Virus record (IMG/VR): IMGVR_UViG_2627853771_000003
DNA: 48,551 bases
Source of the DNA: a virus
Lineage: Duplodnaviria; Heunggongvirae; Uroviricota; Caudoviricetes
Strand: one strand, 5' to 3'
The notes under the pieces are model-generated. The model was not told where the DNA came from. It worked only from the letters and a program-made list of their open reading frames with translations, and searched no databases. Positions 1 through 16,137 of this stretch are shown here, piece by piece; position 1 is the stretch's first letter, and the number at the start of each line of letters is the position of its first letter. Position numbers and translations under genes: made by a program.

Positions 1-500
1 GTAATTATTTACAGTTACAGCCGATCTCCCTGGTTGTGTAACAATATAGTTACTTTTGGGGATCTGGTATCCAGTCAGTAGCTCTTTACGAACCTCCAGT
101 AATTTTTCTTTATTAATCGATGAGGCAAGATTTTTTTCACCGATTATGCTCAGGATATTTTTGATGACGGCACGGTATGTGTTGAGTGATGTTTTTGCGA
201 CTTCAGTTTCTTTCAGTGCCAGAAATTTTTCAGCCAGTTCTTTTATGGTTAAATCTTGTCGGGCCTCACCAAATTTTTCCAGATTGCGTGAGGAGGGAAA
301 CTGTTTTGCATAGTCGAAAACACCAGTTTTTATTGCGTAACAAACAGAGGCGCGTAGCTCACCTGCAACGGCCTGTTTTTTGCTGTGTCAGGAACCCCCA
401 GGTTTTCCCTGACTCTTACGCCTTTATAAACAAACCAGATACGTAATTTCCCTCCATGGTTTTCCACGCCTGTCGGATATTTCATTTCAACTTCTCTCAT
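1..500 (-). pseudogene. phage integrase, N-terminal part (runs off left edge), apparently frameshifted
   Basis: Minus-strand ATG at 500 or 485 gives MREVEMKYPTGVENHGGKLRIWFVYKGVRVRENLGVPDTAKNR then a stop. A second frame is open from about 380 to position 1 (AGELRASVCYAIKTGVFDYAKQF...VTQPGRSAVTVNNY) and has no Met. The frame switch maps to an A6 run (T6 on + strand, 376-381). Lies downstream of xis on the same strand. Confidence 0.5.
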
Positions 501-519
501 TAGTTAGTGTGGCTTTTAG

Positions 520-771
520 TCAAGTAAGATGACGTCTTGGTCTTGCTGATGCCTGGCGCTCAATCCAGCGATCAATTTCTTCCAGGTTGTAAAAGCATGG
601 ACTGTTATCCCATGGCATACCGTCATGAGCGACATGCTTATATTCCCTTCCTTCCATAAACGATTTTTCCCGGGCCTTTTTTAACGTACCTTTTTTTATT
701 CCTTTCAGCGCAATTAACTGCTCTTCGGATACCCATTTGCCGGGAGAGACAATCATGATTACTTCGCTCAT
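520..771 (-). CDS. excisionase-like DNA-binding protein
   Basis: 83-aa ORF between integrase and exonuclease on the same strand; contains a GREY motif as in lambda Xis (KDGREYLF). Confidence 0.55.
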   Translation of the reverse strand: MSEVIMIVSPGKWVSEEQLIALKGIKKGTLKKAREKSFMEGREYKHVAHDGMPWDNSPCFYNLEEIDRWIERQASARPRRHLT

Positions 772-843
772 CGATTTCTTTATCTCTTACATCAGACGAG
801 CGCCGGTTGCAGAATACCAGTCACAACCGGCGACAGTTGAACA

Positions 844-3315
844 TTAAGAATCAGCCTGACTCGGGATCAGTTTTTGCCAGATAGCTGAAACGTATTTTGC
901 CTGGTAACGGGCGTCATCAAGTGCATTATGGCGCTCACCTTCGAATGGAATAGCCGTTCTGGCATCGAAGTCTATGGCTTTCCCCAGCTCAACGATTGTG
1001 CGTACATCGCGATCGTTGTAGTAACGCCACGGGCAGGGGATCCCCTGCCGTTCGTATGAACGGCGCAAAATCGTGTTGTCGAAGTTGGCTCCATTTCCCC
1101 AAACCTGAACAAAAAATTCACCGGAGTTTTCGTCGATAAATTCCCGCAATTGTAACAGTGCATCATCTAACGGGATTTCATCGGTCATAATGGCAGATTG
1201 CGCTTCGCGTGATTGCTTAAGCCACCATTTAATGGTGTCCCGATCAATGACTCCGCCAGCAGTTTCCAGATCGATAGTCTTACTAAATTCCGGTCCCATA
1301 TCTCCGGTTTGCGGATCGAAAAATATTGCACCTATTGAGATGATCGGGGCATCAGGATTTTTTCCCATGGTTTCAAGGTCGATCATTAGATGGTCACACG
1401 TCCTGCTGGTGGATGTGATTTCGTGATGACCGTTCACCTTAATTGGGTGATCTGCCGTCTCGCCAGTTTCATTATCGCTATTGTGATGCTGATTGCCGCC
1501 AGTGTTCTCCTTGTGTGGATGTTCAGCGCCTTCCATTTCCTCCGGATCATCTTCCTGAACTTCAACCTGATACTCTTCATCGAATGTTTCTTGGTATGTT
1601 GCGTCGCCCATCACCGCGCCACAATCAGGGCAGTTGCCGCCGCCGGTCTGACCGCAGGCGGTGCAGACTTTTTCCACTTCCTGTTGCGCCACTGGTTCAG
1701 GCTGTTTCGTTTCTGGCTCGTTTTGTAACGCATTTGGACTGTTTTGTTCCGCTTTTTGGTAGTTCCGTTCCGATTCATGCTGGTTCTGGTTCACAGAATC
1801 GCGGGTCTGGATCCCCTTAACCCATTTCGGATCATTCGGGTCACTAATCCCTTCAACAAATTCACCACGTGATGCAGCAAGCAACTTATCGGCGTCAGGC
1901 TGGCTGATATTGGCTGCCTGCATAATTTTGTTTACTTCGTCAGCGGTAACTTTTATCGGCTCTGGTTGTTCTGAATCTTCAGCGGTATCTACATTTTGCG
2001 GTAAGCCCGTGTATGTGCCATTTTTTCGGGCAAAATATTCTTCTTTTGTGATTTCAGTGGCGCCAGCAGCCAGTGCCTTATCCAGACCAGAAAGTTTGTT
2101 TGCGCGACCGTATTTTTCTCCGTCCTTATCTGCGAAGAGGAAATAGAACGGCCCCTCACGCTCTACAGATGGTTCAGCTTCCGGCGCGGTTTCATTTTTT
2201 GGGATATCAGATACCTCAGTTTCCACTGCATCAGTTTGTGTTTCTGATGACTGGAGAACATCAACAGTGCTCAGGTCTGTTTCTTCATTCTCAAACACGC
2301 CCTTTGTCGTCAGGTATTCGCAGATATATTTGTTCAGTGCTACGGGATCTTTGTGAATGTCGATCGGACGCTCACGGACAAGGCCAAAAATAGTCTGGCG
2401 GTCGTAGCGAAGGGCATCAGGCTGTTTGCGCATTGATGCCGAGATACGCTTCCAGTCTTCGCGGTCGTTGTCGATAACTTCTTTTTTTGCCCAGCGATGG
2501 ATGCTGCCGTCAATGTTTCCGGCATCCACATCACCAGGCCAGAGAGCGTAGGCCAGTTCGTCATCCAGTGTTTTCCATGTCTGCTTGTATTCGCGATGAA
2601 TGGCAGCAATGACCGGGCTGATTTTTCCTGTTGAATTTTCAGTGTACTGTTGATTGGCTCTGGCGCGGGCGAGATCAACAACAGACGTGTATTTTCCGGT
2701 TTCCTTGCGTTCACCTTCGCGACGTTTTTTCCAGATGCGCATCTCTGCCTGAATTTCGGGCCATTTAGCACCAGGAATACATTTATGCTTAACCCACCCA
2801 ATGGCGTGCAACTTAAGCTCCGGATACATGGCGTTAACTTCTGGCATTTTCATCAACGCTTCAACGATATGTCCGTCGAATGTTGCCATGTCTTCCTGCA
2901 ACAATTCCTGTGCGCTAATAACCATATCAACGGTGATGTTTTCACATGTGTCGAACTTAACCATGACAGCGTTCTGTACTTCAGGGGCCAGCTTGTCAAA
3001 AGTGACGTTCATCGGATCGGATTCAGTCTCAACCGGGCCAAAAGAAGCAGACTCCTCATCCCAGCGGTTTTCCTGCATATATTCAGCATCCCATGAATCG
3101 AGGGCAGGGCGGGGTATGCCAGGTTTATCCTCGCAGACAATAAATTTATAAGCGCAGTCCTGAGCAGCCGGATAATGTTCCAGGAACTGCCAGTGAAATT
3201 TTGCTCGAGCACGGCGTTCGTCGCCAGCTTCAATGGCTGTGGCTACAGCCACAGCGCCTTCTTCCCTTGTTGCCAGTTCGTCAGGAATAGCGGCGCAAAT
3301 AAAGACTTTACTCAT
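844..3315 (-). CDS. RecE-like exodeoxyribonuclease with C-terminal DnaQ/DEDDh-type 3'-5' exonuclease motifs
   Basis: 823-aa ORF with an SD (GAGG) before the ATG. The middle region (KLLAASRGEFVEGISDPNDPKWVKGIQTRD; CTACGQTGGGNCPDCGAVMGDATYQETFDEE) matches what I recall of RecE. The C-terminus carries DLETMG, WGNGANFDNTIL and HNALDDA, the three DEDDh exonuclease motifs. Confidence 0.8.
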   Translation of the reverse strand: MSKVFICAAIPDELATREEGAVAVATAIEAGDERRARAKFHWQFLEHYPAAQDCAYKFIVCEDKPGIPRPALDSWDAEYMQENRWDEESASFGPVETESDPMNVTFDKLAPEVQNAVMVKFDTCENITVDMVISAQELLQEDMATFDGHIVEALMKMPEVNAMYPELKLHAIGWVKHKCIPGAKWPEIQAEMRIWKKRREGERKETGKYTSVVDLARARANQQYTENSTGKISPVIAAIHREYKQTWKTLDDELAYALWPGDVDAGNIDGSIHRWAKKEVIDNDREDWKRISASMRKQPDALRYDRQTIFGLVRERPIDIHKDPVALNKYICEYLTTKGVFENEETDLSTVDVLQSSETQTDAVETEVSDIPKNETAPEAEPSVEREGPFYFLFADKDGEKYGRANKLSGLDKALAAGATEITKEEYFARKNGTYTGLPQNVDTAEDSEQPEPIKVTADEVNKIMQAANISQPDADKLLAASRGEFVEGISDPNDPKWVKGIQTRDSVNQNQHESERNYQKAEQNSPNALQNEPETKQPEPVAQQEVEKVCTACGQTGGGNCPDCGAVMGDATYQETFDEEYQVEVQEDDPEEMEGAEHPHKENTGGNQHHNSDNETGETADHPIKVNGHHEITSTSRTCDHLMIDLETMGKNPDAPIISIGAIFFDPQTGDMGPEFSKTIDLETAGGVIDRDTIKWWLKQSREAQSAIMTDEIPLDDALLQLREFIDENSGEFFVQVWGNGANFDNTILRRSYERQGIPCPWRYYNDRDVRTIVELGKAIDFDARTAIPFEGERHNALDDARYQAKYVSAIWQKLIPSQADS

Positions 3316-3408
3316 TTTGTTTTAACCTCATGACAGATTTAAGGATGAACAAATCCCTGCCATTGCTGGCATATAAGAATGAAACCGGATATTTATTACG
3401 GAACTGTT

Positions 3409-3475
3409 TTAAAGACCTGCCGGGATTTCGATATTATCCTGGTGAATAACTTTATCGACCGGGTAACAGTTACCG
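3409..3475 (-). pseudogene. ydfD: ydfD 3' fragment (last 20 codons plus stop), separated from its 5' part by IS2
   Basis: Removing IS2 and one copy of the TSD joins 4936..4807 to 3475..3409 in frame, giving a 63-aa protein MNSAFVLVLTVFLVSGEPVDIAVSAHRTMQECMTAATEQKIPG|NCYPVDKVIHQDNIEIPAGL. Confidence 0.6.
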
Positions 3476-3486
3476 TGGATTTGCCC

Positions 3487-4392
3487 CTATATTTCCAGAC
3501 ACCTGTTATCACTTAACCCATTACTGGCCTGCTGCCGCAGATATTCCCGTGGCGAGCGATAACCCAGTGCACTATGCGGGTGCCATTCGTTATAATGCTC
3601 GAACGCCTCTGCAAGGTTCTTTGCTGCCGTTAACCCGTCTGGTTTAGGCATGATACTGATGTAGTCACGCTTTATCGTTTTCACGAAGCTCTCTGCTATG
3701 CCGTTACTCTCCGGACTCCGCACCGCCGTGTTCTTCGGTTCAAGCCCTAATATCCGGGCAAACTGCCGTGTTTCATTAGCCCGGTAGCATGAACCATTAT
3801 CCGTCAGCCACTCTACTGGAGACGCCGGAAGCTCGTTGCCGAAGCGGCGTTCCACCGCTCCCAGCATGACGTCCTGTACTGTTTCACTGTCGAAGCCGCC
3901 CGTAGTGACTGCCCAGTGCAGTGCCTCACGGTCACAGCAGTCCAGCGCGAACGTGACTCGCAGTTTTTCTCCGTTATCACAGCGGAACTCGAACCCGTCA
4001 GAGCACCATCGTTGATTGCTTTCTTTCACGGCCACTTTGCCAGTATGTGCCCGTTTCGATGGCGGTACAGCGGTTTTTCGCTCAAGCAACAGCGCATTCT
4101 GGCGCATGATCCGGTAAACACGTTTGGCATTGATCGCAGGCATACCATCAAGTTCGGCCTGTCTGCGAAGCAGCGCCCATACCCGACGATAACCATACGT
4201 GGGCAGCTCTCCGATAACATGGTGTATACGGAGAAGCACATCCGTATCATCTGAGTGACGGCTGCGGCGACCATCTTTCCAGTCATCGGTTCGTCTGAGA
4301 ATTACGTGCAACTGCGCACGCGACACCCGGAGACAACGGCTGACTAAGCTTACTCCCCATCCCCGGGCAATAAGGGCGCGTGCGCTATCCAC
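3487..4392 (-). CDS. insD: IS2 transposase OrfB (InsD)
   Basis: 301-aa ORF with a DDE-type integrase core, recognised as IS2 InsD. Confidence 0.9.
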
Positions 4393-4715
4393 TTTTTTGC
4401 ACGCCCGTATTCAACGGCTTCTTTAAGGAGTTCATTTTCCATCGTTTTTTTGCCGAGCAGGCGCTGGAGTTCTTTAATCTGCTTCATGGCAGCAGCAAGT
4501 TCAGAGGCAGGAACGACCTGCTCTCCTGCGGCCACAGCAGTAAGACTTCCCTCCTGGTATTGCTTGCGCCAGAGAAATAACTGGCTGGCTGCCACACCGT
4601 GTTGCCGGGCAACAAGGGAGACCGTCATTCCCGGTTCAAAACTCTGCTGAACAATAGCGATCTTTTCCTGTGTAGTACGCCGTCTGCGTTTCTCCGGTCC
4701 TAAGACATCAATCAT
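4350..4715 (-). CDS. insC: IS2 OrfA (InsC), HTH protein
   Basis: [26 protein letters not shown]...; overlaps insD in the -1 frame as expected for programmed frameshifting. Confidence 0.85.
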
Positions 4716-4806
4716 CTGCTCTCCAATGACTAGTCTAAAAACTAGTATTAAGACTATCACTTATTTAAGTGATATTGGTTGTCTGGAGATTCATGGGGCC
4801 AGTCTA

Positions 4807-4936
4807 TACCGGGAATTTTCTGTTCGGTTGCTGCAGTCATACACTCCTGCATTGTCCTGTGCGCACTGACTGCAATATCAACTGGCTCTCCGGAAACAAG
4901 AAAAACTGTCAGAACAAGCACAAATGCTGAATTCAT
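4807..4936 (-). pseudogene. ydfD: ydfD 5' fragment (first 43 codons), interrupted by IS2
   Basis: Its ATG overlaps the dicB stop (ATGA). The reading frame runs into the IS2 end, where it picks up 16 foreign codons ([16 protein letters not shown]) and a stop. Confidence 0.6.
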
Positions 4937-5121
4937 TGTGCACATCCTTTTGGCATCAGACGTAAACGAGCCAGCATTGAAACAATGCATATTTTATTTA
5001 ATAGCTCCCGTTCTTGTTTTCTCTTGTTAATGGCATCTTCAGTAAATACTGGGTTACTGATAGTGACACCAATTTCAAAACAACCTTCAGACGTATTAAC
5101 GTTTGGTAATAACGTTTTCAT
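4933..5121 (-). CDS. dicB: cell-division inhibitor DicB
   Basis: 62-aa product MKTLLPNVNTSEGCFEIGVTISNPVFTEDAINKRKQERELLNKICIVSMLARLRLMPKGCAQ; SD GAGGA 7 nt upstream; lies just downstream of the dicF-like sequence. Confidence 0.75.
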   Translation of the reverse strand: MKTLLPNVNTSEGCFEIGVTISNPVFTEDAINKRKQERELLNKICIVSMLARLRLMPKGCAQ

Positions 5122-5290
5122 TATCGCGTCCTCAACAATGAATTTTGTGATGCAGTGCCTGGTGCCTCCAGGTGACGTTAACCAGTTAACAATTAACGCC
5201 GGATACAGAGAATCCACCCATAACACTGTTTTTGGTTTTAACTGTTCCGCGTGCGCTCAGCCGCATTCACCACATCACAAAATTCACTTT

Positions 5291-5348
5291 AAAAAGGGCG
5301 GCAGAGCAGTCACGGAGTAAAACTGATACCGCCAAACGTCACCAGAAA
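5291..5348 (-). ncRNA. dicF: DicF-like small RNA (ftsZ-targeting sRNA of the dicB operon)
   Basis: Minus-strand sequence TTTCTGGTGACGTTTGGCGGTATCAGTTTTACTCCGTGACTGCTCTGCCGCCCTTTTT, with a GGCGG...CCGCC stem followed by a U-run; sits between the ydfC-like and dicB genes with no protein-coding capacity. Confidence 0.6.
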
Positions 5349-5688
5349 ATTGATAACAGAGGGCGTTGCAGCGGGGTTGTCACTTAAGCGTATGGTCAAC
5401 CTGACAACCCGGTGTCCTCAACGGGGAAGGAATAACCCCGCCATACTTACCGCCGCGCCATTTCGCGGGTTGCCACAACCGGAAGCGCACGGTCGACGAA
5501 AATTTAACGACAGGCTATCTATGAACCAGCTACCTCGCCGTGCGCTTTCGCGTTATGGTCTGACTTTTCAGGGAAATATCCTTTCAGTAAACTGTCAGTG
5601 CCGGATGCTCACCCGTGTCCGGCGCACGCACTCCACCTCACCCGTGGAGAATTCCTTAATTACTAACCTTAGCTTTGTTGATTAGCTA

Positions 5689-5907
5689 CTAACGCGGGTA
5701 TGTAATCATTCTGGCAATGCTTAATGCCGCTGCTTTTTCCAGATTGGTGATATCCTGCTCCAGAGCGGACAGATTTTCAGCCTGCTTAGCCCTGGCTTCA
5801 TTAGCCCATTTCAGATCCTGCGCTGCATTAATTTTCTGGCGCATCCACTCATAAAGTTCATCATCGGTATAGTCTGGCGCGATGATGACGGGTTCTCGTT
5901 TCTGCAC
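5689..5907 (-). CDS. ydfC: small dicB-operon protein (YdfC-like by size and position)
   Basis: 72-aa ORF with GTG start preceded by GAGGA; position in the operon matches ydfC. Confidence 0.5.
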   Translation of the reverse strand: MQKREPVIIAPDYTDDELYEWMRQKINAAQDLKWANEARAKQAENLSALEQDITNLEKAAALSIARMITYPR

Positions 5908-5936
5908 GCTGATTCCTCGCGGTGCTGTTTCGCTTA

Positions 5937-6065
5937 TCAGCCGTTAGATTTTGCCGAACTGGAAAGCGCCTGTTTAAATTCGCTGAAGCTGAGAGCTTCT
6001 TCGCCTTCGGCAAGGCCTTCGAAGTATTCTTCGTAAGCCTTTTCCATGATTGTGTCGAAATCCAT
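5937..6065 (-). CDS. ydfB: small acidic dicB-operon protein (YdfB-like by size and position)
   Basis: 42 codons, MDFDTIMEKAYEEYFEGLAEGEEALSFSEFKQALSSSAKSNG; SD GGTGGG; start lies 1 nt after the upstream gene's stop. Below the 60-aa track cut-off. Confidence 0.45.
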   Translation of the reverse strand: MDFDTIMEKAYEEYFEGLAEGEEALSFSEFKQALSSSAKSNG

Positions 6066-6066
6066 A

Positions 6067-6222
6067 TCACCCACCTGAATTTCTTTCCAGCCAGCGACGC
6101 GCTCCAGATTCGGTTTTAAACGTTTTGCTTTTGGTATACGTCATTGCGGTGAAGGTGCCGTCCTGGTTGGGAAACACGCCGTACACCAGAGATTCGTTGT
6201 TGCCAAGATCGATAGTATCCAT
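6067..6222 (-). CDS. ydfA: small dicB-operon protein (YdfA-like by size and position)
   Basis: 51 codons from the internal ATG (MDTIDLGNNESLVYGVFPNQDGTF...), with SD AAGGGGA/GAGGT upstream; first gene downstream of the repressor on the same strand. Confidence 0.5.
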   Translation of the reverse strand: MDTIDLGNNESLVYGVFPNQDGTFTAMTYTKSKTFKTESGARRWLERNSGG

Positions 6223-6519
6223 GCTGACCTCATTTCCCCTTAACGCCGGGGTAGCGGAACAAAAACCTGCTGCATAGTTATTAAAGTTGAACCCTGCCGT
6301 CATGTTCTTACGCCTCGGGCTGGCTACTTAACCCCTGACCACTGCCTGGTAACTCGAAGTATTGCCCTGCATTCTGTGGGGCGGGGTGGGTGGCAGGTAT
6401 ATAATGTACTTTGCGTTCATTGTTGTAAAGTACTTTTAGTACATTTTGTGTGTAAAAAAATGAGATGGGATAAAGTGAAGCACAAACCCGGAGGAAGGCG
6501 CTACCGGATTTATGCTGGT

Positions 6520-6939
6520 TTAAGAGGCTTTTTGTTTTTTCTTTCGTGCTAACTCTTCGTAAATTGCATTGTACTTCTGTTTTTTCTCTTCAAGAGTTTT
6601 TAAAAGTTCATCTGTCTCACTGTCAGGGAGCTCGTCCAGAAGGTCAATGATGATTTTTTGTCTTGGATTTAACTCCTGATAGAAACGTACCTGTCCACTT
6701 TCTTCTGTATCCTCTCCCAAAAGATAGGTTGGTGTTGTTCCTATTAGTGTTGCTAATTCCCTTAATTTCTCCCGGCGAGGAATTGTTTCGCCATTAAACC
6801 ATTTGCTAACCGCTTTTGGTGTTAATTTCATTCGACGGGCAATTTCTGCCTGCCTTCCATGTTGTTCATAACCAGCGTTTTCACAGGCTAGCGCAAGCCT
6901 ACTGGCGAACTCTTTACGCGCTTTATCTTCATGAACCAT
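6520..6939 (-). CDS. DicA/RacR-like HTH (XRE-family) prophage repressor, no peptidase S24 domain
   Basis: 139 aa with an N-terminal HTH (GRQAEIARRMKLTPKAVSKWFNG) and an acidic C-terminal tail; divergent from the cro-like gene. Confidence 0.75.
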   Translation of the reverse strand: MVHEDKARKEFASRLALACENAGYEQHGRQAEIARRMKLTPKAVSKWFNGETIPRREKLRELATLIGTTPTYLLGEDTEESGQVRFYQELNPRQKIIIDLLDELPDSETDELLKTLEEKKQKYNAIYEELARKKKQKAS

Positions 6940-7018
6940 AAGTTCAATGATATTCGCTCTTGAATGTACTGTCAGTTCTGTTATAGCATGTACTCAAAGT
7001 TCACACTGTGAGGGTGAT
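6940..7018. promoter_or_regulatory. divergent repressor/cro control region with candidate operator repeats
   Basis: 79-bp intergenic region between divergent HTH genes; two 16-bp direct repeats ATGTACTnnnAGTTC-like (about 6963-6978 and 6987-7002). Confidence 0.4.
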
Positions 7019-7273
7019 ATGAACCAGAAAACACTTGAAGATGTAATCAAAACTGTTCGCGTTGCTGTTGTGGCCGACGTTTGTGGTGTCAGCCAAAGAG
7101 CAATCTATAAATGGATGGATAACGGAAAATTGCCTCGCACAGAATATACCGGCGAAACAAATTACGCTGAAAAAATCGCTCTTGCATCAAACGGATTATT
7201 TTCTGCCGATGCAATTTTAACTATTGGCAGGAATAAAACTACTACGAAAAAGCTGATGGGAGTTGATTCATGA
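7019..7273 (+). CDS. Cro/DicC/YdaS-like HTH regulator
   Basis: ATG at 7019 preceded by GAGGG; product MNQKTLEDVIKTVRVAVVADVCGVSQRAIYKWMDNGKLPR... Confidence 0.7.
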   Translation: MNQKTLEDVIKTVRVAVVADVCGVSQRAIYKWMDNGKLPRTEYTGETNYAEKIALASNGLFSADAILTIGRNKTTTKKLMGVDS

Positions 7274-7695
7274 AAATCAAGCATGAACACATCCGCATGG
7301 CGATGAATGCCTGGGCGCATCCGGACGGCGAAAAAGTACCGGCTGCGAAAATTACCAAAGCGTATTTCGAGCTGGGAATGACGTTCCCGGAACTGTATGA
7401 CGACAACCATCCGGAAGCCCTGGCTCGCAATACTCAGAAAATTTTCCGCTGGGTGGAGAAAGACACCCCTGATGCGGTTAAAAAAATTCAGGCGTTGTTA
7501 CCAGCTATCGAAAAAGCAATGCCACCTCTGCTGGTGGCCCGAATGCGCAGTCATAGCTCAGCATATTTTCGGGAACTAGTGGAGACGCGGGAACGACTGG
7601 TGAGAGACGCTGATGATTTTGTCGCAGTGGCGATCGCTGGTTTCAACCAGATGAATCGTGGTGGCCCTGCAGGAAATATTGTGGCTGTGCATTGA
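7270..7695 (+). CDS. YdaT/CII-like early regulatory protein
   Basis: 141 aa starting MKIKHEHI, overlapping the cro-like stop; position equivalent to cII/ydaT. Confidence 0.6.
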   Translation: MKIKHEHIRMAMNAWAHPDGEKVPAAKITKAYFELGMTFPELYDDNHPEALARNTQKIFRWVEKDTPDAVKKIQALLPAIEKAMPPLLVARMRSHSSAYFRELVETRERLVRDADDFVAVAIAGFNQMNRGGPAGNIVAVH

Positions 7696-7766
7696 CTCGC
7701 AATATTCATACCGGATCACTTCCGGCAATTTGTGAGTAAAAAGATTCGGTATCAAAAGAGGTGAGT

Positions 7767-8837
7767 ATGGCTAACGCCTGGCTCAGATTATGGCATGACA
7801 TGCCAAATGACCCTAAGTGGCGAACAATTGCCAGGGTGTCAGGGCAGCCAATTGCAACAGTGATGGCAGTGTATATCCACCTCCTGGTGAGCGCGTCACG
7901 AAATGTCACGCGAGGTCACATTGATGTCACGACAGAAGATTTGGCAAGTGCGCTCGACGTGACAGAAGAGGTAATTGATTCAATTTTGCAGACGATGCAG
8001 GGGCGGGTACTTGATGGTGATTTAATCACTGGATGGGAAAAACGCCAGGTGCTTAAAGAGGACAACGGCAATATTTCGCAAACCGCAAAATCTCCGGCAG
8101 AGCGCAAGAGGGCGCAGCGAGAGAGGGAAAGAAAGCGGGAACAAAATGGCGATTGTCACGGCGCGTCACGAAATGTCACGCACATGTCACGACGAGTCAC
8201 GACAGATAAAGATACAGATAAAGATACAGATCAAGAAGATCAAAACACTATGGTCCATGGCGTAAAAAACGCCACGAACCAGGCAGGGGATGTTCAGACC
8301 GTCAATCCTGGTCAGCCAGCAGGCACGACACCGGAAGCCGATTCAGCGTATGCGCTGAAAGCCGATTCGGGCGCTGTGCAGCAGGTGATGACCCCAAGGC
8401 CGGAGCAATCACACCAACTGCAGCAGCCTGAAGCCGATTCCGCCATTCAGCGGGAAGCCGATCGGGTAGTCCCGGAAAACACCGGGCTGTCTGTGGGACG
8501 AGTGGATTATCCGGATGTGTTCGAACAGGTCTGGCGGGAGTACCCGTTGCGTGCCGGAGCAAACCCGAAGAAATCCGCTTTCAGTGCCTGGAAGGCCAGA
8601 TTACGCGAGGGGGTGCCACCAGAGGACATGCTGGATGGCGTGAGGCGTTACGCAAGATACTTGGCGGCTACCGGGAAAACGGGAACGGAATTTGTTCAGC
8701 GAGCGACGACGTTTTTTGGACCGGACCGGAATTTTGAGAACCCCTGGTTGCTCCCGGTAAGCGGCACGAACAACCAGCGTTGTGTGAATCATATTTCTGA
8801 ACCGGATAACGAAATTCCGCCGGGCTTCAGGGGGTAA
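7767..8837 (+). CDS. replication initiation protein (lambda O-like / YdaU-type), iterons inside the gene
   Basis: ATG at 7767 with SD AAGAGG; N-terminus MANAWLRLWHDMPNDPKWR; internal DKDTDKDTD linker; two GTCACG iteron arrays lie in the coding sequence. Confidence 0.65.
   Translation: MANAWLRLWHDMPNDPKWRTIARVSGQPIATVMAVYIHLLVSASRNVTRGHIDVTTEDLASALDVTEEVIDSILQTMQGRVLDGDLITGWEKRQVLKEDNGNISQTAKSPAERKRAQRERERKREQNGDCHGASRNVTHMSRRVTTDKDTDKDTDQEDQNTMVHGVKNATNQAGDVQTVNPGQPAGTTPEADSAYALKADSGAVQQVMTPRPEQSHQLQQPEADSAIQREADRVVPENTGLSVGRVDYPDVFEQVWREYPLRAGANPKKSAFSAWKARLREGVPPEDMLDGVRRYARYLAATGKTGTEFVQRATTFFGPDRNFENPWLLPVSGTNNQRCVNHISEPDNEIPPGFRG
7891..7931 (+). repeat. iteron array A: four GTCAC(G/A) repeats at about 10-bp spacing
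   Basis: GTCACG at 7895 and 7905, GTCACA at 7915, GTCACG at 7926; the 20-mer GCGCGTCACGAAATGTCACG is repeated exactly at 8161. Confidence 0.55.
8151..8246 (+). promoter_or_regulatory. candidate replication origin: five GTCACG iterons followed by an A-rich tandem repeat
   Basis: GTCACG at 8155, 8165, 8175, 8186 and 8196 (one helical turn apart), then GATAAAGATACAGATAAAGATACAGATCAAGAAGATCAAAAC. Confidence 0.5.
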
Positions 8838-8877
8838 GTGTTAATTTCTGGTCATGAGGTAATTTTCAGGAGGACTT

Positions 8878-9303
8878 GTGGCAAAAGTTTTTACACAAGA
8901 AGAGCGGGAAAAAATTAAAGGGCAGGTTGTTGAACTCGTACGCCAGAGTGGGCGCGAGACGTTACGACAACTGGAAACTAAAACTGGGGCAACAAGATAT
9001 CTGATGAGTGTTCTGGCCAGAGAGCTGGTTGCCAGTGGCGATGTATACAACTCTGGTTACGGGTTATTCCCGTCTGAACAGGCGCGTAAGGACTGGCAAA
9101 ATGCCCGTAAAAAGCTCTCAAGGGCAAAGCTGAAGAAACCATCTGCGGTTGATCCGGACCTTATCTGGTCATTACCTGACGGAGAAATACGTCGCTACGA
9201 TAGTTGTCTAAACATAATCTGTCGCGAGTGCCGGAAGAGCGAAGTTATGCAGCGCATTCTGGCATTTTATCAGGGAAATGTTAGGTATTTTAGACGTTAC
9301 TAG
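8878..9303 (+). CDS. hypothetical protein, probable winged-helix DNA-binding domain
   Basis: 141 aa, GTG start with SD AGGAGGA; follows the O-like gene where a helicase loader would be expected but is too small and unlike DnaC/P. Confidence 0.5.
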   Translation: MAKVFTQEEREKIKGQVVELVRQSGRETLRQLETKTGATRYLMSVLARELVASGDVYNSGYGLFPSEQARKDWQNARKKLSRAKLKKPSAVDPDLIWSLPDGEIRRYDSCLNIICRECRKSEVMQRILAFYQGNVRYFRRY

Positions 9304-9530
9304 ATTAAAGGGCATTAGTTCAGATATGCATTGACATTTTCATGGCACAAGGTAGAGCTAGCGTGGTTGTTCGCTTTGTGCCAAGAGTGGTCATTGATAA
9401 TATTTTGGTGGGTTACATCTGTCAATGTTTCAGGTGATATGATATACAAATAGCCAGACTTAGACTGGCATGCTGTTTATTTTTATATTATGGGTGTGCC
9501 ACATGGATTTAAAACTTATTGAGATATGAC

Positions 9531-10556
9531 ATGGATACTTTTCATAATATTTTGCTTGAGCACATAGACAGCCTTTTAAAAGAGAGACTTGATTTATCTG
9601 GTGACGCTGATATCGAAAAAGAAATTAATAACCTAATTCCCAAAATAGCCATTGTCGTTAAAAAATCTCTTATTGGCTCGGCCAATGCAATGCTTAGAGA
9701 ACATCGTTCTCTTTGTGATGAATTTGTTGAGAGAAATATTTCAAGATGGGCAGAGGCTTTTGATTTGCTCGAAACACTTATAGTGATATGCACGGAGTCC
9801 GGTGAAGAGTTCAATCGTTCTTATAGACCACAAGCTGCCTCTGAAGAGGATGTGGTTTTTGATTTAGTCGTTCGGCATCACGCAAGAGCTTGCCACATCG
9901 CCAACGAAATTTTGTGTCTCTTAAAGAATGGATTTGCAGATGCTGCCCAAGCGAGATGGCGAGCACTTCATGAGGTAGCGGCCACAGCTATGTTTATAGC
10001 AAAGCATGGAAAAGAGTGTGCTGAGCGCTTTTACTACCATGAAGTGGTTGATTCATATACTGGAATGTTGGAACACAAAAAGTACGAGCACCGGTTAGAA
10101 GCAAAAGGTCCAACTATTGAAGAAATAGCTGAGTGTAAAGTTCAATTTGATCTATTAATAAAAAAATATGGCAAAAAATATGCAGATAATTATGGCTGGG
10201 CATCTTATATTTTCCCTAACCATAATAAAGTGGGGTTTGGAGCTATTGAGAAAGATGTTCAGTTAGAACACATGCGCCCTTATTATAAGTGGGCGAGTCA
10301 GAATGTACACACCGGTTCCAAGGCAATGAGAAATAGGCTTGGTCTCTGTGAAACTGGTGATGATATATTATTGGTCGGGCAAAGTGATTCAGGAATGGCT
10401 GAACCAGCCCATGCTACTGCTATTAGTTTGATGCAGATTACTGTGACACTTTTATTTTTAAAACCAACCATTGATCATGCCGTCATTTCAAAAATAATAC
10501 AGGATTATTCTGATGAGATTGGAAATGTATTTCTTAAAATTGATAAGGGTAATTAA
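9531..10556 (+). CDS. orphan protein of unknown function in an AT-rich island (candidate accessory/defence gene)
   Basis: 341 aa from the first ATG (the track ORF begins at a TTG at 9519). AT-rich coding sequence flanked by AT-rich non-coding DNA; no family recognised; contains RHHARACH (R-x6-H). Confidence 0.6.
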   Translation: MDTFHNILLEHIDSLLKERLDLSGDADIEKEINNLIPKIAIVVKKSLIGSANAMLREHRSLCDEFVERNISRWAEAFDLLETLIVICTESGEEFNRSYRPQAASEEDVVFDLVVRHHARACHIANEILCLLKNGFADAAQARWRALHEVAATAMFIAKHGKECAERFYYHEVVDSYTGMLEHKKYEHRLEAKGPTIEEIAECKVQFDLLIKKYGKKYADNYGWASYIFPNHNKVGFGAIEKDVQLEHMRPYYKWASQNVHTGSKAMRNRLGLCETGDDILLVGQSDSGMAEPAHATAISLMQITVTLLFLKPTIDHAVISKIIQDYSDEIGNVFLKIDKGN

Positions 10557-10842
10557 AAATTGGAAAAGTGATAGTATATTCTTGTTTTTTTTACTGGTAA
10601 TTAAATGTTTTTAAAGTTACTAGTTCACACCTATCGAACGTCCGGTCTTCGCCCAAAGCGGACTAGAAGGTTAGCTTGCGTCGGACTTGGCGTATTTAAA
10701 GAAGTGCTGGTGGTGACTGGTTGTTGTGTTCCATTTCTACAGAACAAAATCACAGAAACTATACCCAATAGTTATATTGAATCAATGATGAGACAGCCTC
10801 ATATTTATCAGGACTGGTGTACGTCCAATACAGGAGGTTGTC

Positions 10843-10932
10843 GTGCTGGTTCTCAAATGTGCGCTAGCTATTGCGGCTGTAATGGCAATTTATTGTCTTG
10901 CTGTTGTTCTTACGGATCGCCTTTCTGATTGA
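10843..10932 (+). CDS. candidate small hydrophobic peptide (29 aa), type I toxin-like
   Basis: GTG start 5 nt after AGGAGG; product MLVLKCALAIAAVMAIYCLAVVLTDRLSD (single TM helix plus charged tail). Not in the track (under 60 aa); overlaps the implausible 107-aa track ORF in another frame. Confidence 0.35.
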   Translation: MLVLKCALAIAAVMAIYCLAVVLTDRLSD

Positions 10933-11143
10933 TTTTATATTGGCGAGGTGACGGGAGTTAAGTAGAATTGCTGCGGGTGCTTGAGGCTATCTGCCTCAGG
11001 CATGAACACCAAAGGCAGATAGAGAAAAGCCCCAGTTAACATTACGCGTCCTGCAAGACGTTTAACATTAATCTGAGGCTCAATCTATGAACGGCAAATC
11101 TAGGTTAGCCTCTTGCGTGCCGAAAGGCAAGGAGAAGCAGGCT

Positions 11144-11299
11144 ATGAAGCAGCAAAAGGCGATGTTAATCGCCCTGATCGTCATCTGTTTAACCGTCATA
11201 GTGACGGCACTGGTAACGAGGAAAGACCTCTGCGAGGTACGAATCCGAACCGGCCAGACGGAGGTCGCTGTCTTCACAGCTTACGAACCTGAGGAGTAA
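11144..11299 (+). CDS. hokD: Hok/Gef-family type I toxin (HokD/RelF-like)
   Basis: 51-aa product MKQQKAMLIALIVICLTVIVTALVTRKDLCEVRIRTGQTEVAVFTAYEPEE; an in-frame upstream ATG at 11087 gives a mok-like extension; terminator follows. Confidence 0.85.
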   Translation: MKQQKAMLIALIVICLTVIVTALVTRKDLCEVRIRTGQTEVAVFTAYEPEE

Positions 11300-11366
11300 G
11301 AGACCAGGCGGGGGAGAATCCCTCGCCACCTCTGATGTGTCAGGCATCCTCAACGCACCCGCACTT

Positions 11367-11393
11367 AACCCGCTTCGGCGGGTTTTGTTTTTT
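11367..11393 (+). terminator. rho-independent terminator after hok
   Basis: CCCGC-TTCG-GCGGG hairpin followed by TTTTGTTTTTT. Confidence 0.6.
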
Positions 11394-11465
11394 CCTGACA
11401 TTCTGGTTTACAATTCGCACGCCAGCCTGAACAACTGGCACCTGCTGCGCCAGCAGAGACAACCG

Positions 11466-11744
11466 ATGGCGCACGATACCAAATTACACAATTCTGATGA
11501 TTCTGCCGTCTTTGCCAGCAGGCACGGGCGGCGTTCCCGCACTTTCAAATCTGACTGGTTCCAGCATCCCCCATGCACTGAAGAACAGGCCGAGTGGCTA
11601 ATTCAGTGCTACCGCAGACACGGATACGAGATTAAGAAAGCCCTCAGCCTCGATTATCGTCACTGGATAATCTCCGTCAGGCTTCCTTACTCCGAACGCC
11701 CACCGCGTCCGTCCCGCACATTCCAGCAACGCATCTGGAGGTAA
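11466..11744 (+). CDS. hypothetical nin-region protein (92 aa)
   Basis: Only Met in the frame downstream of the hok terminator; its stop overlaps the start of the DUF968 gene. Confidence 0.45.
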   Translation: MAHDTKLHNSDDSAVFASRHGRRSRTFKSDWFQHPPCTEEQAEWLIQCYRRHGYEIKKALSLDYRHWIISVRLPYSERPPRPSRTFQQRIWR

Positions 11745-11745
11745 C

Positions 11746-12795
11746 GTGCGGATATTACTTCGACCTGTTCTGGTACCGGAACTCGGGCTGGTGATCGTTA
11801 AGCCGGGCCGTGAATCCATGCCGGTATTCCACAATACCCGGGTACTGGTGGAGCCGGAACCGAAAAGCATGCGTAATCTGCCGTCCGGGGTCGTTCCTGC
11901 CGTTCGCCAGCCGCTGGTGGAAGACAAAACATTGCTGCCGTTTTTCAGTAACGCACGGGTAATTCGTGCTGCTGGTGGTGCTGGTGCATTGTCTGACTGG
12001 CTGTTGCGCCATATTAAATCCTGCCAGTGGCCACACGGCGATTATCATCACAGCGAAACCGTTATTCACCGATATGGTACCGGCGCAATGGTGTTGTGCT
12101 GGCACTGCGACAACCAGCTGCGTGACCAGACATCCGAATCACTCGAGCAACTTGCTCATCAAAACCTGTCAGCATGGATGATTGACGTCATCGGTCACGC
12201 AATAAGCGGTACGCAGGAGCGTGAATTATCTCTGGCTGAATTATCCTGGTGGGCGGTCCGCAATCAGCTGGCGGACGCGCTACCGGAAGCGGTATTACGT
12301 CGCTCGCTGGGATTACCAGCGGAAAAAATCTGCTCGGTGTACCGCGAAAGCGACATCGTACCGGGAGAGCAGACCGCCACCAGCATATTGAAACAGCGCA
12401 CAAAAAATCTTGCACCGTTGCCTCACGCCCACCAGCAACAAAACCCATCACAGGAAAAGACGGTGGTAAGCATCACCGTTGATCCAGAGTCTCCGGAATC
12501 TTTCATGAAGCTGCCTAAACGTCACCGGTGGGTTAAGGAGAAATACACACGCTGGGTTAAGACACAGCCGTGTGCTTGCTGCGGTATGCCAGCCGACGAT
12601 CCGCATCATCTGATTGGTCACGGGCAGGGCGGAATGGGAACCAAAGCACATGATCTCTTTGTTTTGCCTTTGTGCAGAAAGCATCACGACGAGTTGCATA
12701 CGGATACCGTGGCATTTGAAGAGAAGTATGGCTCCCAACTGGAGCTGATTTTTCGATTTATCGATCGCGCGCTGGCAATTGGTGTGCTGGCCTAA
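11746..12795 (+). CDS. ydfU: YdfU-like DUF968 protein with C-terminal Cys/His (HNH-like) cluster
   Basis: 349 aa, GTG start after GGAGG; C-terminus [43 protein letters not shown]. Confidence 0.7.
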
Positions 12796-12812
12796 TTTTG
12801 TGGAGTAAGTTG

Positions 12813-13190
12813 ATGCGTGATATTCAGATGGTTCTTGAGCGTTGGGGGGCATGGGCGGCTAATAATCATGAAGATGTGACCTGGTCGTCCATTGCCGCCG
12901 GTTTTAAGGGATTAATTCCTTCAAAAGTAAGATCTCGTCCGCAATGCTGTGACGATGACGCGATGATCATTTGTGAATGTATGGCTCGCCTGAAAAAAAA
13001 CAACAGCGATTTACATGATTTATTGGTGGACTATTATGTCGGCGGCATGACTTTTATGGCGCTTGCACGTAAGCATGGGCGATCTGATTGTTGGGTTGGC
13101 AGGATGCTCCAGAAAGCTGAGGGCGTAGTGGAGGGCATGCTGATGGTGTTGGATCTCCGATTGGAGATGGATGCTGATTGTTCGAAATAA
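12813..13190 (+). CDS. late-gene antiterminator, Q-like (Phage_antitermQ type)
   Basis: [26 protein letters not shown]...; SD GGAGTAAG; position upstream of the late terminator and lysis genes. Confidence 0.65.
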
Positions 13191-13290
13191 TTAAAGGAAA
13201 AGTTGCTGTCTGATTTTCATTAGTCTAACATTTTAAATGTTGGAATCGCAACGTAGTTATTATCATATAACAGCTTGTTTCCTGATTTAG

Positions 13291-13317
13291 CCAGCCTCCC
13301 CAAAGGCTGGTTTTTTT
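13291..13317 (+). terminator. rho-independent terminator downstream of Q (tR'-like)
   Basis: CCAGCC-TCCCCAAA-GGCTGG hairpin followed by TTTTTTT. Confidence 0.6.
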
Positions 13318-13345
13318 CTAATAAGTATCATTTCGGGTGGGGATT

Positions 13346-13870
13346 TTATTGTTTAACCCATAATAGTTCATTGACATTGAATCCCAACTTTTGAGCGGTA
13401 CGCACATAGTCTGCTTTTACATTATCTGGAATAGTTTGGGTCCTTGCCAGAATCCATAGGTATTCTCTGTTCGGACCACTGACAAGAGCATACTTATACT
13501 CATCATCCAGTTTGATTACATTATAGCCACCATAGAAGGGGCCAAAAAACGAAACTTTCAACGCTGCAGTTTTAGTATCTCCAGTAAAGTATGCTTTACC
13601 TTCGCTCTCGCTCCATTTGTTTTTCGTTGGATCGTATCCACGGTTAAGTACGCGAATCCCTCCGTCGTTCCGTTTTTCATAAGTAGCGCTGACCTGTTCC
13701 AGACCACGTTCGAACCAGTTCTCGAGGCGAGCTATTTCATACCATTTTCCGAGGTAGCGGTTGGCGTCAAAATTTGTAATCGGCTGCACACCTTTAGGTG
13801 GTGTCGGGGCCTTACATGCTATAAGAGTGAAAGAGAGTGCAATGCCAGTCAACACAGGCCATAACTTCAT
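13346..13870 (-). CDS. Blc-like bacterial lipocalin, outer-membrane lipoprotein (moron)
   Basis: Signal peptide with lipobox LIAC; lipocalin motifs YLGKWYEIARLENWFERG and SFFGPFYGGYNVI; opposite strand to the phage late genes. Confidence 0.85.
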   Translation of the reverse strand: MKLWPVLTGIALSFTLIACKAPTPPKGVQPITNFDANRYLGKWYEIARLENWFERGLEQVSATYEKRNDGGIRVLNRGYDPTKNKWSESEGKAYFTGDTKTAALKVSFFGPFYGGYNVIKLDDEYKYALVSGPNREYLWILARTQTIPDNVKADYVRTAQKLGFNVNELLWVKQ

Positions 13871-14062
13871 AATAAATCCTGTACTTTTGATAGTTGAGAG
13901 TAAGTATGAAAGATAGATGAGTACGACCGATCACTTAAAGAACTTTCCTACTATATTAGGAATAGTCAATAACAGAAAAATTGTCAGTGATGAAGCCAGA
14001 AAGGCAATTTAGTCCGTGCACTACAAAGTTTATGTGTTAATGAATTAGTCAAGGGGGAGGAA

Positions 14063-14896
14063 ATGATAAAAAAACCTGTGATTGGGATCAGCGGTTGTTT
14101 GGGCGGTTCTGCTGTTCGTTTTGATGGTGGTCACAAAAGAGATGACTTTTTAATGGACAAATTAGTGGAATGGGTAACATTCAGACCAGTATGTCCGGAA
14201 ATGGCTATAGGGCTGCCAGTTCCGCGTCCTGCTCTACGACTTGTGCGCTCGAAGCAAGGAAATATACGGATGTGTTTCAGCCACGACCAGAATGAGGATG
14301 TGACAGAGAGAATGACAGAGTTTAGTCGTTCTTATATGGACAAATTAAAGGATGTATCGGGGTTTGTGGTTTGTGCTAAATCTCCCAGCTGTGGCATGGA
14401 GCGCGTGCGTGTCTATGATGAAAATGGTAATCGAGGTCGTAAAGATGGAGTGGGACTATTTACGAGCACTTTGATGGAAAAGTTTTCCTGGCTACCGGTT
14501 GAAGAGGATGGGCGATTACATGATCCAGTGCTTCGTGAGAATTTTATTGAAAGAGTTTTTGCTTTGCATGAGCTCAATCACCTTTACAAGGAGAAATTAT
14601 CAAGAAGAGAGTTATTAGCTTTTCATAGTCGTTATAAGCTTCAGTTGTTGGCGCATAGCCAGGCAGGCTATAAAGATATGGGACCATTTGTGGCTGCAAT
14701 ACACGAGTGGGCGGACCTTGAATCATACTTTGAGGTGTATCGTGATAATCTGATGGCGATTCTCAGAAAACCAGCATCACGTAAAAATCACACGAATGTG
14801 CTGATGCATATACAGGGGTATTTTAGTAATTACTTAAGTACACGCCAGCGTAAAGAGTTGAGCGAGGTTATACTTAACTTGATCCTACCCACGTAA
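14063..14896 (+). pseudogene. DUF523 (TudS-like, three-Cys cluster) + DUF1722 fusion protein gene, 3' end interrupted by IS3
   Basis: N-terminus MIKKPVIGISGCLGG with Cys12/Cys44/Cys105. The frame enters IS3 at 14880 and stops after 5 foreign codons. Removing IS3 and one TSD copy restores a 47-codon continuation ending at 16283. Confidence 0.7.
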
Positions 14897-14909
14897 TATG
14901 GACACAGGC

Positions 14910-15776
14910 CTAAGCGAGGTTCTTGTTTTCAAATTGTTCCGGACTGAGGCCGCCACACCAACTGTGCCGCCGCCACCGATTGTAATCACATTCGATATAA
15001 TTAAACACCGTTGCCCGCATTATTTCCCGGCTGATAAAGTGTTCTCCATGGATACATTCCACTTTCAGCGAATGAAAGAAGCTTTCCACGCAGGCATTAT
15101 CGTAGCAGCAACCTTTTGCGCTCATACTTCCACGCAGATTATGCCGCTTCAGTTGCGCCTGATAATCTGCTGAACAGTACTGGCCTCCACGGTCCGTGTG
15201 AACGATAACGTTCCGGGGCCTCTTACGCCGCCACAGCGCCATCTGCAGGGCATCGCAGGCCAGTTGCGCCGTCATGCGTGGCGACATTGACCAGCCAATA
15301 ACGGCACGTGACCACAGGTCAATGACCACTGCCAGATACAGCCAGCCTTCATCTGTACGTAAGTACGTGATGTCTCCTGCCCACTTCTGGTTCGGGCCAC
15401 TGGCGTAAAAATCCTGCTCCAACAGATTTTCTGACACAGGCAGGCCGTGTGCGCGGTAGCTGACCGGGCTGAACTTCCGGGAGGCCTTTGCCCTCAGCCC
15501 CTGACGGCGCAGGCTTGCCGCCACGGTTTTTACGTTAAAGGGGTAACCCTGAGCACGCAGTTCATCCGTCAGGCGTGGGGCACCGTAACGCTGTTTTGAC
15601 CGGGTAAAAGCCGCGAGGACAACGCTGTCGCAGTGTTGGCGGAACTGCTGACGCGTGCTTATCCTTGTCCGCCGCTGACACCACGTATACCAGCCGCTGC
15701 GGGCCACCCGGAGCACGCGGCACATTGCTTTGATGCTGAACTCAGCCTGATGTTTTTCAATAAAGACATACTTCAT
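14910..15776 (-). CDS. insF: IS3 transposase OrfB (InsF)
   Basis: 288-aa DDE integrase-core ORF inside IS3. Confidence 0.9.
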
Positions 15777-16081
15777 TTCAGGCGCTTCGCGAAGTATGTC
15801 GCGGCCTTTTGGAGGATAGCCAGCTCTTCATCCCGTTCTGCCAGCTGGCGTTTGAGACGTGCAATCTCGGTAGACATCTCCAGTTCACGTTCAGAAGACG
15901 TCTGCTGATTTTGCTGTTTACTGCGCCAGTTGTAGAGTTGTGATTCATACAGGCTGAGTTCACGGGCTGCGGCAGTAACACCGATGCGTTCAGCAAGCTT
16001 CAGGGCTTCACTGCGAAATTCAGGCGAATGCTGTTTACGGGGTTTTTTACTGGTTGATACTGTTTTTGTCATGTGAGTCAC
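15773..16081 (-). CDS. insE: IS3 OrfA (InsE), HTH/leucine-zipper protein
   Basis: 102-aa ORF overlapping orfB by 4 nt. Confidence 0.85.
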
Positions 16082-16137
16082 CTCTGACTGAGAGTTTACT
16101 CACTTAGCCGCGTGTCCACTATTGCTGGGTAAGATCA

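Follow-up and report, generated by a model that had tools for sequence, protein, structure and literature searches.

An IS2 insertion in the ydfD gene of a Qin-like prophage of Escherichia coli

The DNA considered here, a stretch of 48,551 nucleotides from a virus (IMG/VR record IMGVR_UViG_2627853771_000003) that is referred to below as the window, carries next to dicB a small gene that is split by an insertion sequence. This raises the question of what the insertion has cost the dicF-dicB operon, what it has left in place and whether it is an ordinary event in a decaying prophage or one that was favoured by selection. The best overall explanation, held with high confidence, is that of an IS2 insertion in ydfD of a Qin-like prophage, which would represent one step in the IS-driven decay of a cryptic prophage.

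The IS2 element and the interrupted ydfD gene

The element occupies positions 3476..4806 on the minus strand and is 1331 bp long. Both ends could be read directly, with the IRR at 3476 (TGGATTTGCCCC...) and the IRL at 4806 (...GGGGCCAGTCTA), and the terminal inverted repeats, the IRR as given and the IRL reading TAGACTGGCCCC..., are imperfect and of the IS2 type. It is bordered by a copy of TACCG on the exo side (3471..3475) and another on the dicB side (4807..4811), the chance of a given 5-mer matching on both sides being approximately 1 in 1024. Two ORFs lie within it on the minus strand, namely orfA (InsC/TnpA, 121 aa, 4350..4715), which scored 275.8 bits against the NCBIfam model 'IS2 repressor TnpA' (NF006928, cutoff 229), and orfB (InsD, 301 aa, 3487..4392), which scored 704 bits against 'IS2 transposase TnpB' (NF006918, cutoff 597). 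The ends, the duplication and these scores bear out the identification of the element, in an earlier note made from the sequence alone, as IS2 (IS3 family) with an exact 5-bp target-site duplication. It is the only IS2 copy in the window. A slippery sequence (A AAA AAG) at 4392-4398 would join orfA and orfB by a −1 frameshift into a 409-aa OrfAB transposase, and a 409-aa protein with rve domains was called at the matching locus of a related contig (L003). Since the OrfAB frame is open, the copy looks functional as far as its sequence goes.

The gene that is interrupted, ydfD, spans exactly positions 3409..4936. Excision of IS2 together with one copy of TACCG fuses 4936..4812 to 3475..3409 (minus strand) and gives MNSAFVLVLTVFLVSGEPVDIAVSAHRTMQECMTAATEQKIPGNCYPVDKVIHQDNIEIPAGL, an ORF of 63 codons (192 nt with its stop) of which the ATG overlaps the TGA of dicB as ATGA, so that the restoration described earlier was reproduced exactly. 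The restored YdfD matched the Pfam family DUF1482 (PF07358) over profile positions 1-57 of 57 with 90 bits (cutoff 25) and was identical at 62 of 63 residues to the RefSeq 'lysis protein YdfD' of the empty site (WP_001083297), the one difference being V25A (window position 4863). When the reconstructed junction was aligned with uninterrupted sites, a single mismatch per 600 bp (99.8% identity) was found against many complete E. coli genomes, in which the empty site is annotated as 'lysis protein YdfD', 'DicB' and 'exonuclease'. Of 5426 complete E. coli genomes, 3653 contain 80% or more of this 600-bp stretch. Intact counterparts of the restored ORF, the lack of which the earlier note had regarded as fatal to its reading, are abundant. 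It should also be noted that all carriers of the IS2 allele have V25A, as follows from their having been looked up by exact sequence, and that it was absent from the intact sites that matched best, each at 99.8% identity; this substitution may have arisen after ydfD was inactivated.

The insertion point lies at codon 43/44. The 5′ fragment of ydfD (4807..4936, minus strand), consisting of codons 1-43 plus one nucleotide, covers only positions 1-48 of the 57 of the DUF1482 profile and reads into the IRL of IS2, creating a 59-aa YdfD′::IS fusion ORF (4757..4936). The 3′ fragment (3409..3475, minus strand), which is 99.6% identical to K-12, contains the last 20 codons and the stop and is cut off from its start. 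The last 20 residues of YdfD are hence exchanged for 16 encoded by the IS. It has been reported that cells survive the induction of YdfD lacking 1, 2 or 5 residues at its C-terminus, with longer deletions giving more survivors, from which the authors concluded that intact YdfD is required (PMC8835842). These ΔC1, ΔC2 and ΔC5 data imply that the truncation seen here would abolish lysis, and it can be inferred on good grounds that the lysis function of YdfD is lost in the IS2 allele. Among the 43 native residues that the fusion retains is the N-terminal stretch for which binding to IspG has been reported, and some residual YdfD activity is therefore conceivable.

It is proposed that one intact IS2-type element transposed into ydfD, a small lysis gene whose translation is coupled to that of dicB, and that it duplicated the 5-bp target TACCG, as is normal for IS2. 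An alternative to any such event is that the element was misplaced by the assembler, as IS copies often break or mis-join short-read assemblies and most contigs carrying this allele stop inside the IS. However, the 59-aa fusion product recurs on at least 13 public contigs (from 7 NCBI assemblies and 2 metagenome assemblies), and the same junction on so many contigs argues against an assembly artefact. The junction on the dicB side was identical in all nine independent loci compared (L003-L011), and both junctions are carried by L003, a contig of 4.65 Mb that matches window positions 1..14574 at 99.89% identity and is the nearest record, separated from the window by 4 substitutions and 2 indels over 14.6 kb. 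The concern raised earlier that the TACCG copies might prove inexact in independent sequence is answered by these same contigs. Taken with the exact duplication and the exact restoration of the ORF, this allows a chimeric or artefactual origin to be dismissed for practical purposes. The exact junction in one piece was found in none of the complete RefSeq E. coli genomes, which indicates that its distribution is limited to a small lineage.

The dicBF operon, its repressor and the surrounding prophage

Immediately upstream of ydfD, dicB (4933..5121, minus strand) encodes an intact protein of 62 aa that matched Pfam PF05358 over positions 1-62 of 62 with 136.8 bits (against 27) and is identical to DicB of K-12 (WP_000854559-type). 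The DicF small RNA (5296..5347, minus strand), located between ydfC and dicB and followed by a run of T, matched the full Rfam model RF00039 (1-52) with 76.7 bits (gathering score 48), and its 52 nt are likewise identical to those of K-12. The earlier statement that DicF and a 62-aa DicB are intact was hereby confirmed. DicF is a base-pairing repressor of ftsZ and other mRNAs, and its identity to the characterised K-12 RNA suggests that it would act on the same mRNAs here. Further upstream on the minus strand are ydfC (5689..5907; intact, with a GTG start, identical to K-12 YdfC), ydfB (5937..6065; intact, identical to K-12 YdfB) and ydfA (6067..6222; intact, with 49 of 51 residues identical to K-12 YdfA), and a match to Pfam DUF1391 lies within this block (5689..6222). 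Upstream of the insertion the leftward operon (ydfA-ydfB-ydfC-dicF-dicB) is unchanged, and a lineage lacking the YdfD lysis function should still produce DicF and DicB upon derepression.

Whether ydfD is the last gene of the operon, as had been stated, depends on the evidence consulted. The longest transcript detected in K-12 is ydfABC-dicFB-ydfD, of 1,608 nt (PMC10448788), and this fits the statement. However, ydfD is followed on the same strand by a full-length exo gene for an 823-aa exonuclease (844..3315), the N-terminal part of which corresponds to the K-12 ydfE pseudogene, then by xis (520..771) and by int, whose 5′ part runs from 485 to the first position of the window, so that ydfD is not strictly last. 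A terminator scan of the interval from ydfD to exo turned up a single weak candidate, no better than expected by chance, and nothing convincing. This arrangement, in which the transposase genes lie on the operon strand with exo, xis and int downstream of them and no convincing terminator before exo, allows for a regulatory reading of the insertion: a co-oriented IS2 could be polar on exo-xis-int and lock the prophage in, or its transposase could be raised by read-through from the leftward promoter on derepression. This is judged very unlikely, as no K-12 transcript longer than the one mentioned was detected (PMC10448788), so that little transcription may reach IS2, and the int frame is already broken in the window (see below).

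The operon is probably kept silent by the prophage's own CI-type repressor, acting through operator-like sites that overlap its promoter. A gene for a CI/XRE-type repressor of 139 aa (6520..6939, minus strand) was found upstream, encoding a Pfam HTH_3 domain and a C-terminal helical region with no S24 peptidase domain. The earlier note had called this repressor DicA-like, which holds for its architecture and its position but does not extend to orthology, since it shows 29% identity to DicA over 112 aa (E=5e-15) and scored 56.8 bits against the NCBIfam DicA model (NF007257), short of the cutoff, which is 101. Its mode of action is plausibly that of DicA although it falls outside the DicA subfamily. 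Upstream of ydfA a single promoter-like site was found, a pL-like candidate, TTTACA-17-CATTAT (6429..6401, minus strand). Two operator-like sites (6405-6419 and 6429-6443) overlap its −35 and −10 regions, and two more (6965-6979 and 6989-7003) lie between the repressor gene and a cro-like gene (7019..7273, plus strand). These share the 15-mer TGTACTNNNAGTWCA (TGTACT-N3-AGTWCA), which, with one mismatch allowed, was detected at four sites in the whole 48.5 kb against an expectation of 0.15, all of them in the two immunity regulatory regions. This distribution supports a lambda-like OR/OL arrangement in which the four sites are candidate binding sites of the 139-aa repressor, and their sharing between both regions suggests that the repressor would control the dicBF operon. 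Homology to K-12 Qin ends 38 bp upstream of ydfA; the immunity module has been swapped, as is usual for lambdoid mosaics.

The window is a Qin-like lambdoid prophage of E. coli. Its location was determined from L003 and from an empty-site locus (L015), in both of which the prophage adjoins rspB-rspA-ynfA-ynfB-speG, the Qin site of K-12, and the two features that define the Qin type, integration next to rspB and a leftward arm of int-xis-exo-ydfD-dicB-dicF-ydfCBA, are both present. Two additional elements from Rfam were observed on the plus strand, a sok antitoxin RNA (10975..11149, 109.6 bits), with a gene for a hok/HokD-type toxin called at the corresponding place in related contigs, and a cspA-type 5′UTR thermoregulator (19920..20317, 109 bits); Qin of K-12 carries a hokD locus and cold-shock genes.

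The intactness described earlier applies to the dicF-dicB part of the operon and not to the prophage as a whole. An IS66-family element (23216..25747, with minus-strand ORFs of 141, 116 and 537 aa), flanked by an 8-bp duplication (ACATTATG) at 23208-23215 and 25748-25755, splits the gene for the terminase large subunit, gpA, and its excision restores an ORF of 699 aa; with gpA split, the prophage would be unable to package DNA. A 1258-bp copy of IS3 is located at 14880..16137 (ends TGATCCTACCCACG... and ...CTGGGTAAGATCA). The ends of both elements were located by direct reading, having been missed by an inverted-repeat scan. The IS3 copy adjoins a 2-thiouracil-desulfurase/DUF1722 gene (14063..14896), which encodes 277 aa compared with 319 aa in the related contig L004 and is therefore probably truncated in the window. 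The int gene (1..485, minus strand) has a 1-bp deletion relative to L003 near position ~370 (CAACG-GCC versus CAACGCGCC), as a result of which its frame stops after 51 codons; either it is a pseudogene in this strain or the record contains a sequencing error. L003 (GCA_052948675.1) has in turn an 11-bp deletion in the gene for the 823-aa exonuclease, corresponding to window positions 1879..1889; the window has an undamaged copy of this gene. The left-arm genes being lost differ from one member of the lineage to another.

IS2 insertions elsewhere in the region

Approximately nine further independent IS2 events, in both orientations and involving differing IS2 variants, were found in complete E. 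coli genomes between the equivalents of window positions 3292 and 5369 (L001, L002, L012-L014 and L016-L019), orientation being given relative to the IS2 of the window. Apart from the insertion in ydfD of K-12 HMS174 (3458-3462, TSD ACCGG, same orientation), dicB is interrupted in the NT1F31 clone (up to 4975, opposite), ST-131 (5015-5020, opposite), DAX4 (up to 5045, same) and FDAARGOS_1299 (5098-5104, opposite), the dicF-dicB spacer in the GPEC clone (about 5159-5167, same) and FDAARGOS_1249 (5200-5204, same), a position just 5′ of DicF in Eco_23-2678 (5365-5369, same) and the start of exo in the HCP5S3 clone (3292-3296, same).

IS2 occurs within 600 bp of the site in only about 12 of the 5426 complete genomes. 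The ydfD-dicB-dicF segment has a same-orientation IS2 in seven genomes and an opposite one in five, and a bias in orientation can be rejected on these counts. Two segments served as matched controls: the neighbouring exo-5′ segment yielded two genomes, representing a single clone, and the ydfC-ydfA segment none. Expressed as independent events this becomes 5 versus 1 and 0, or roughly P=0.05 (Poisson, uncorrected for phylogeny and flank conservation). A rough uniform expectation of ~4-5 genomes (about 25,000 IS2 ends x 600 bp x about 1.5 copies / 5 Mb) compares with the 12 observed, but it ignores clonality on both sides and no significance is claimed for it. The enrichment of IS2 in this stretch is suggestive, not significant.

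These numbers bear on the possibility that the insertion was retained for the advantage of losing a toxic lysis gene, IS2 in dicF-dicB-ydfD being favoured during the domestication of the prophage. It is consistent with such disarmament that YdfD, DicB and DicF are each toxic when expressed (PMC8835842, PMC10448788), that HMS174 acquired its own ydfD::IS2, with a different TSD and a distinct IS copy, and that at least seven further independent events fall in dicB, the dicF-dicB spacer or the 5′ edge of dicF. On the other hand, the site is uninterrupted in the 3653 genomes mentioned above, the counts compared with the controls are tiny, and the operon is normally repressed, so that selection against ydfD may be weak. 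An adaptive origin is accordingly considered unlikely, though tenable.

A local hot spot for IS2, based on the sequence or structure of the target and operating with no selection, would account for the clustering of insertions within about 600 bp and for the two ydfD insertions lying 13 bp apart at near-identical targets within CGACCGGGTAACAGTTACCGGGAA, ACCGG and TACCG each being followed by G. Both orientations occur, however, and the events are too few, and such a preference is considered quite unlikely. Decidedly improbable is the broader proposal that ydfD-dicB-dicF of Qin-like prophages is a recurrent and selected target of IS2, that insertion is a standard route of disarming by which the rest is kept, and that the alleles of the window and of HMS174 are parallel cases of it. 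Should the repeated IS2 hits in this 600-bp toxin module prove true in a phylogeny-aware survey, they would provide a small but clear case of IS-mediated domestication of a prophage. The preferred reading remains that of one step in IS-driven decay, and we infer that the insertion was neutral or mildly beneficial. Its relevance lies in filamentation, ManYZ-dependent phage resistance and DicF regulation in the strains carrying it, with little beyond annotation otherwise.

Comparison with known elements, prophages and alleles

IS2, DicF, DicB, YdfD and the CI-type repressor are all known and characterised, and the event is ordinary, an IS insertion of a standard kind into a cryptic prophage. With the IS2 of E. 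coli K-12 the element shares its length of 1331 bp, its terminal sequences, an orfA/orfB arrangement with a −1 frameshift at A6G and a 5-bp TSD. It differs in being a sequence variant, with 95.5% nucleotide identity and 97.1% amino acid identity (OrfAB) to the K-12 copy, and is closer to copies in other E. coli strains (98.3-99.6% nucleotide identity). Isoforms are defined in ISfinder by approximately 95% nucleotide identity or more, or 98% amino acid identity, and under this rule the copy in the window is a borderline case.

The dicBF operon of K-12 Qin (ydfABC-dicF-dicB-ydfDE) agrees with that of the window in gene order, in 98.7% DNA identity from the 5′ part of ydfD to ydfA, in identical DicF, DicB, YdfB and YdfC, in the overlap of ydfD with the dicB stop and in its site beside rspB. 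The two differ in the immunity module, which is replaced in the window and has cro-like and YdaT-like genes beyond the repressor, in the exonuclease, which is full length (823 aa) in the window as opposed to the ydfE remnant of K-12, and in the interruption of ydfD.

An equivalent ydfD::IS2 allele already exists in HMS174, a sequenced K-12 derivative (NZ_LM993812, L002). It has the same orientation, a 5-bp TSD and a truncated DUF1482 ORF beside an intact dicB. It is, however, a separate event located 13 bp further 3′ in ydfD, with ACCGG as its TSD and an IS2 that differs from that of the window at 60 of 1331 positions (95.5% identity), and it resides in a K-12 Qin backbone with a further deletion from ydfE to ynfM. 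A truncated ydfE is joined there directly to a truncated MFS transporter gene beside asr, and by K-12 gene order we take this deletion to be ~20 kb, from intQ to ynfM.
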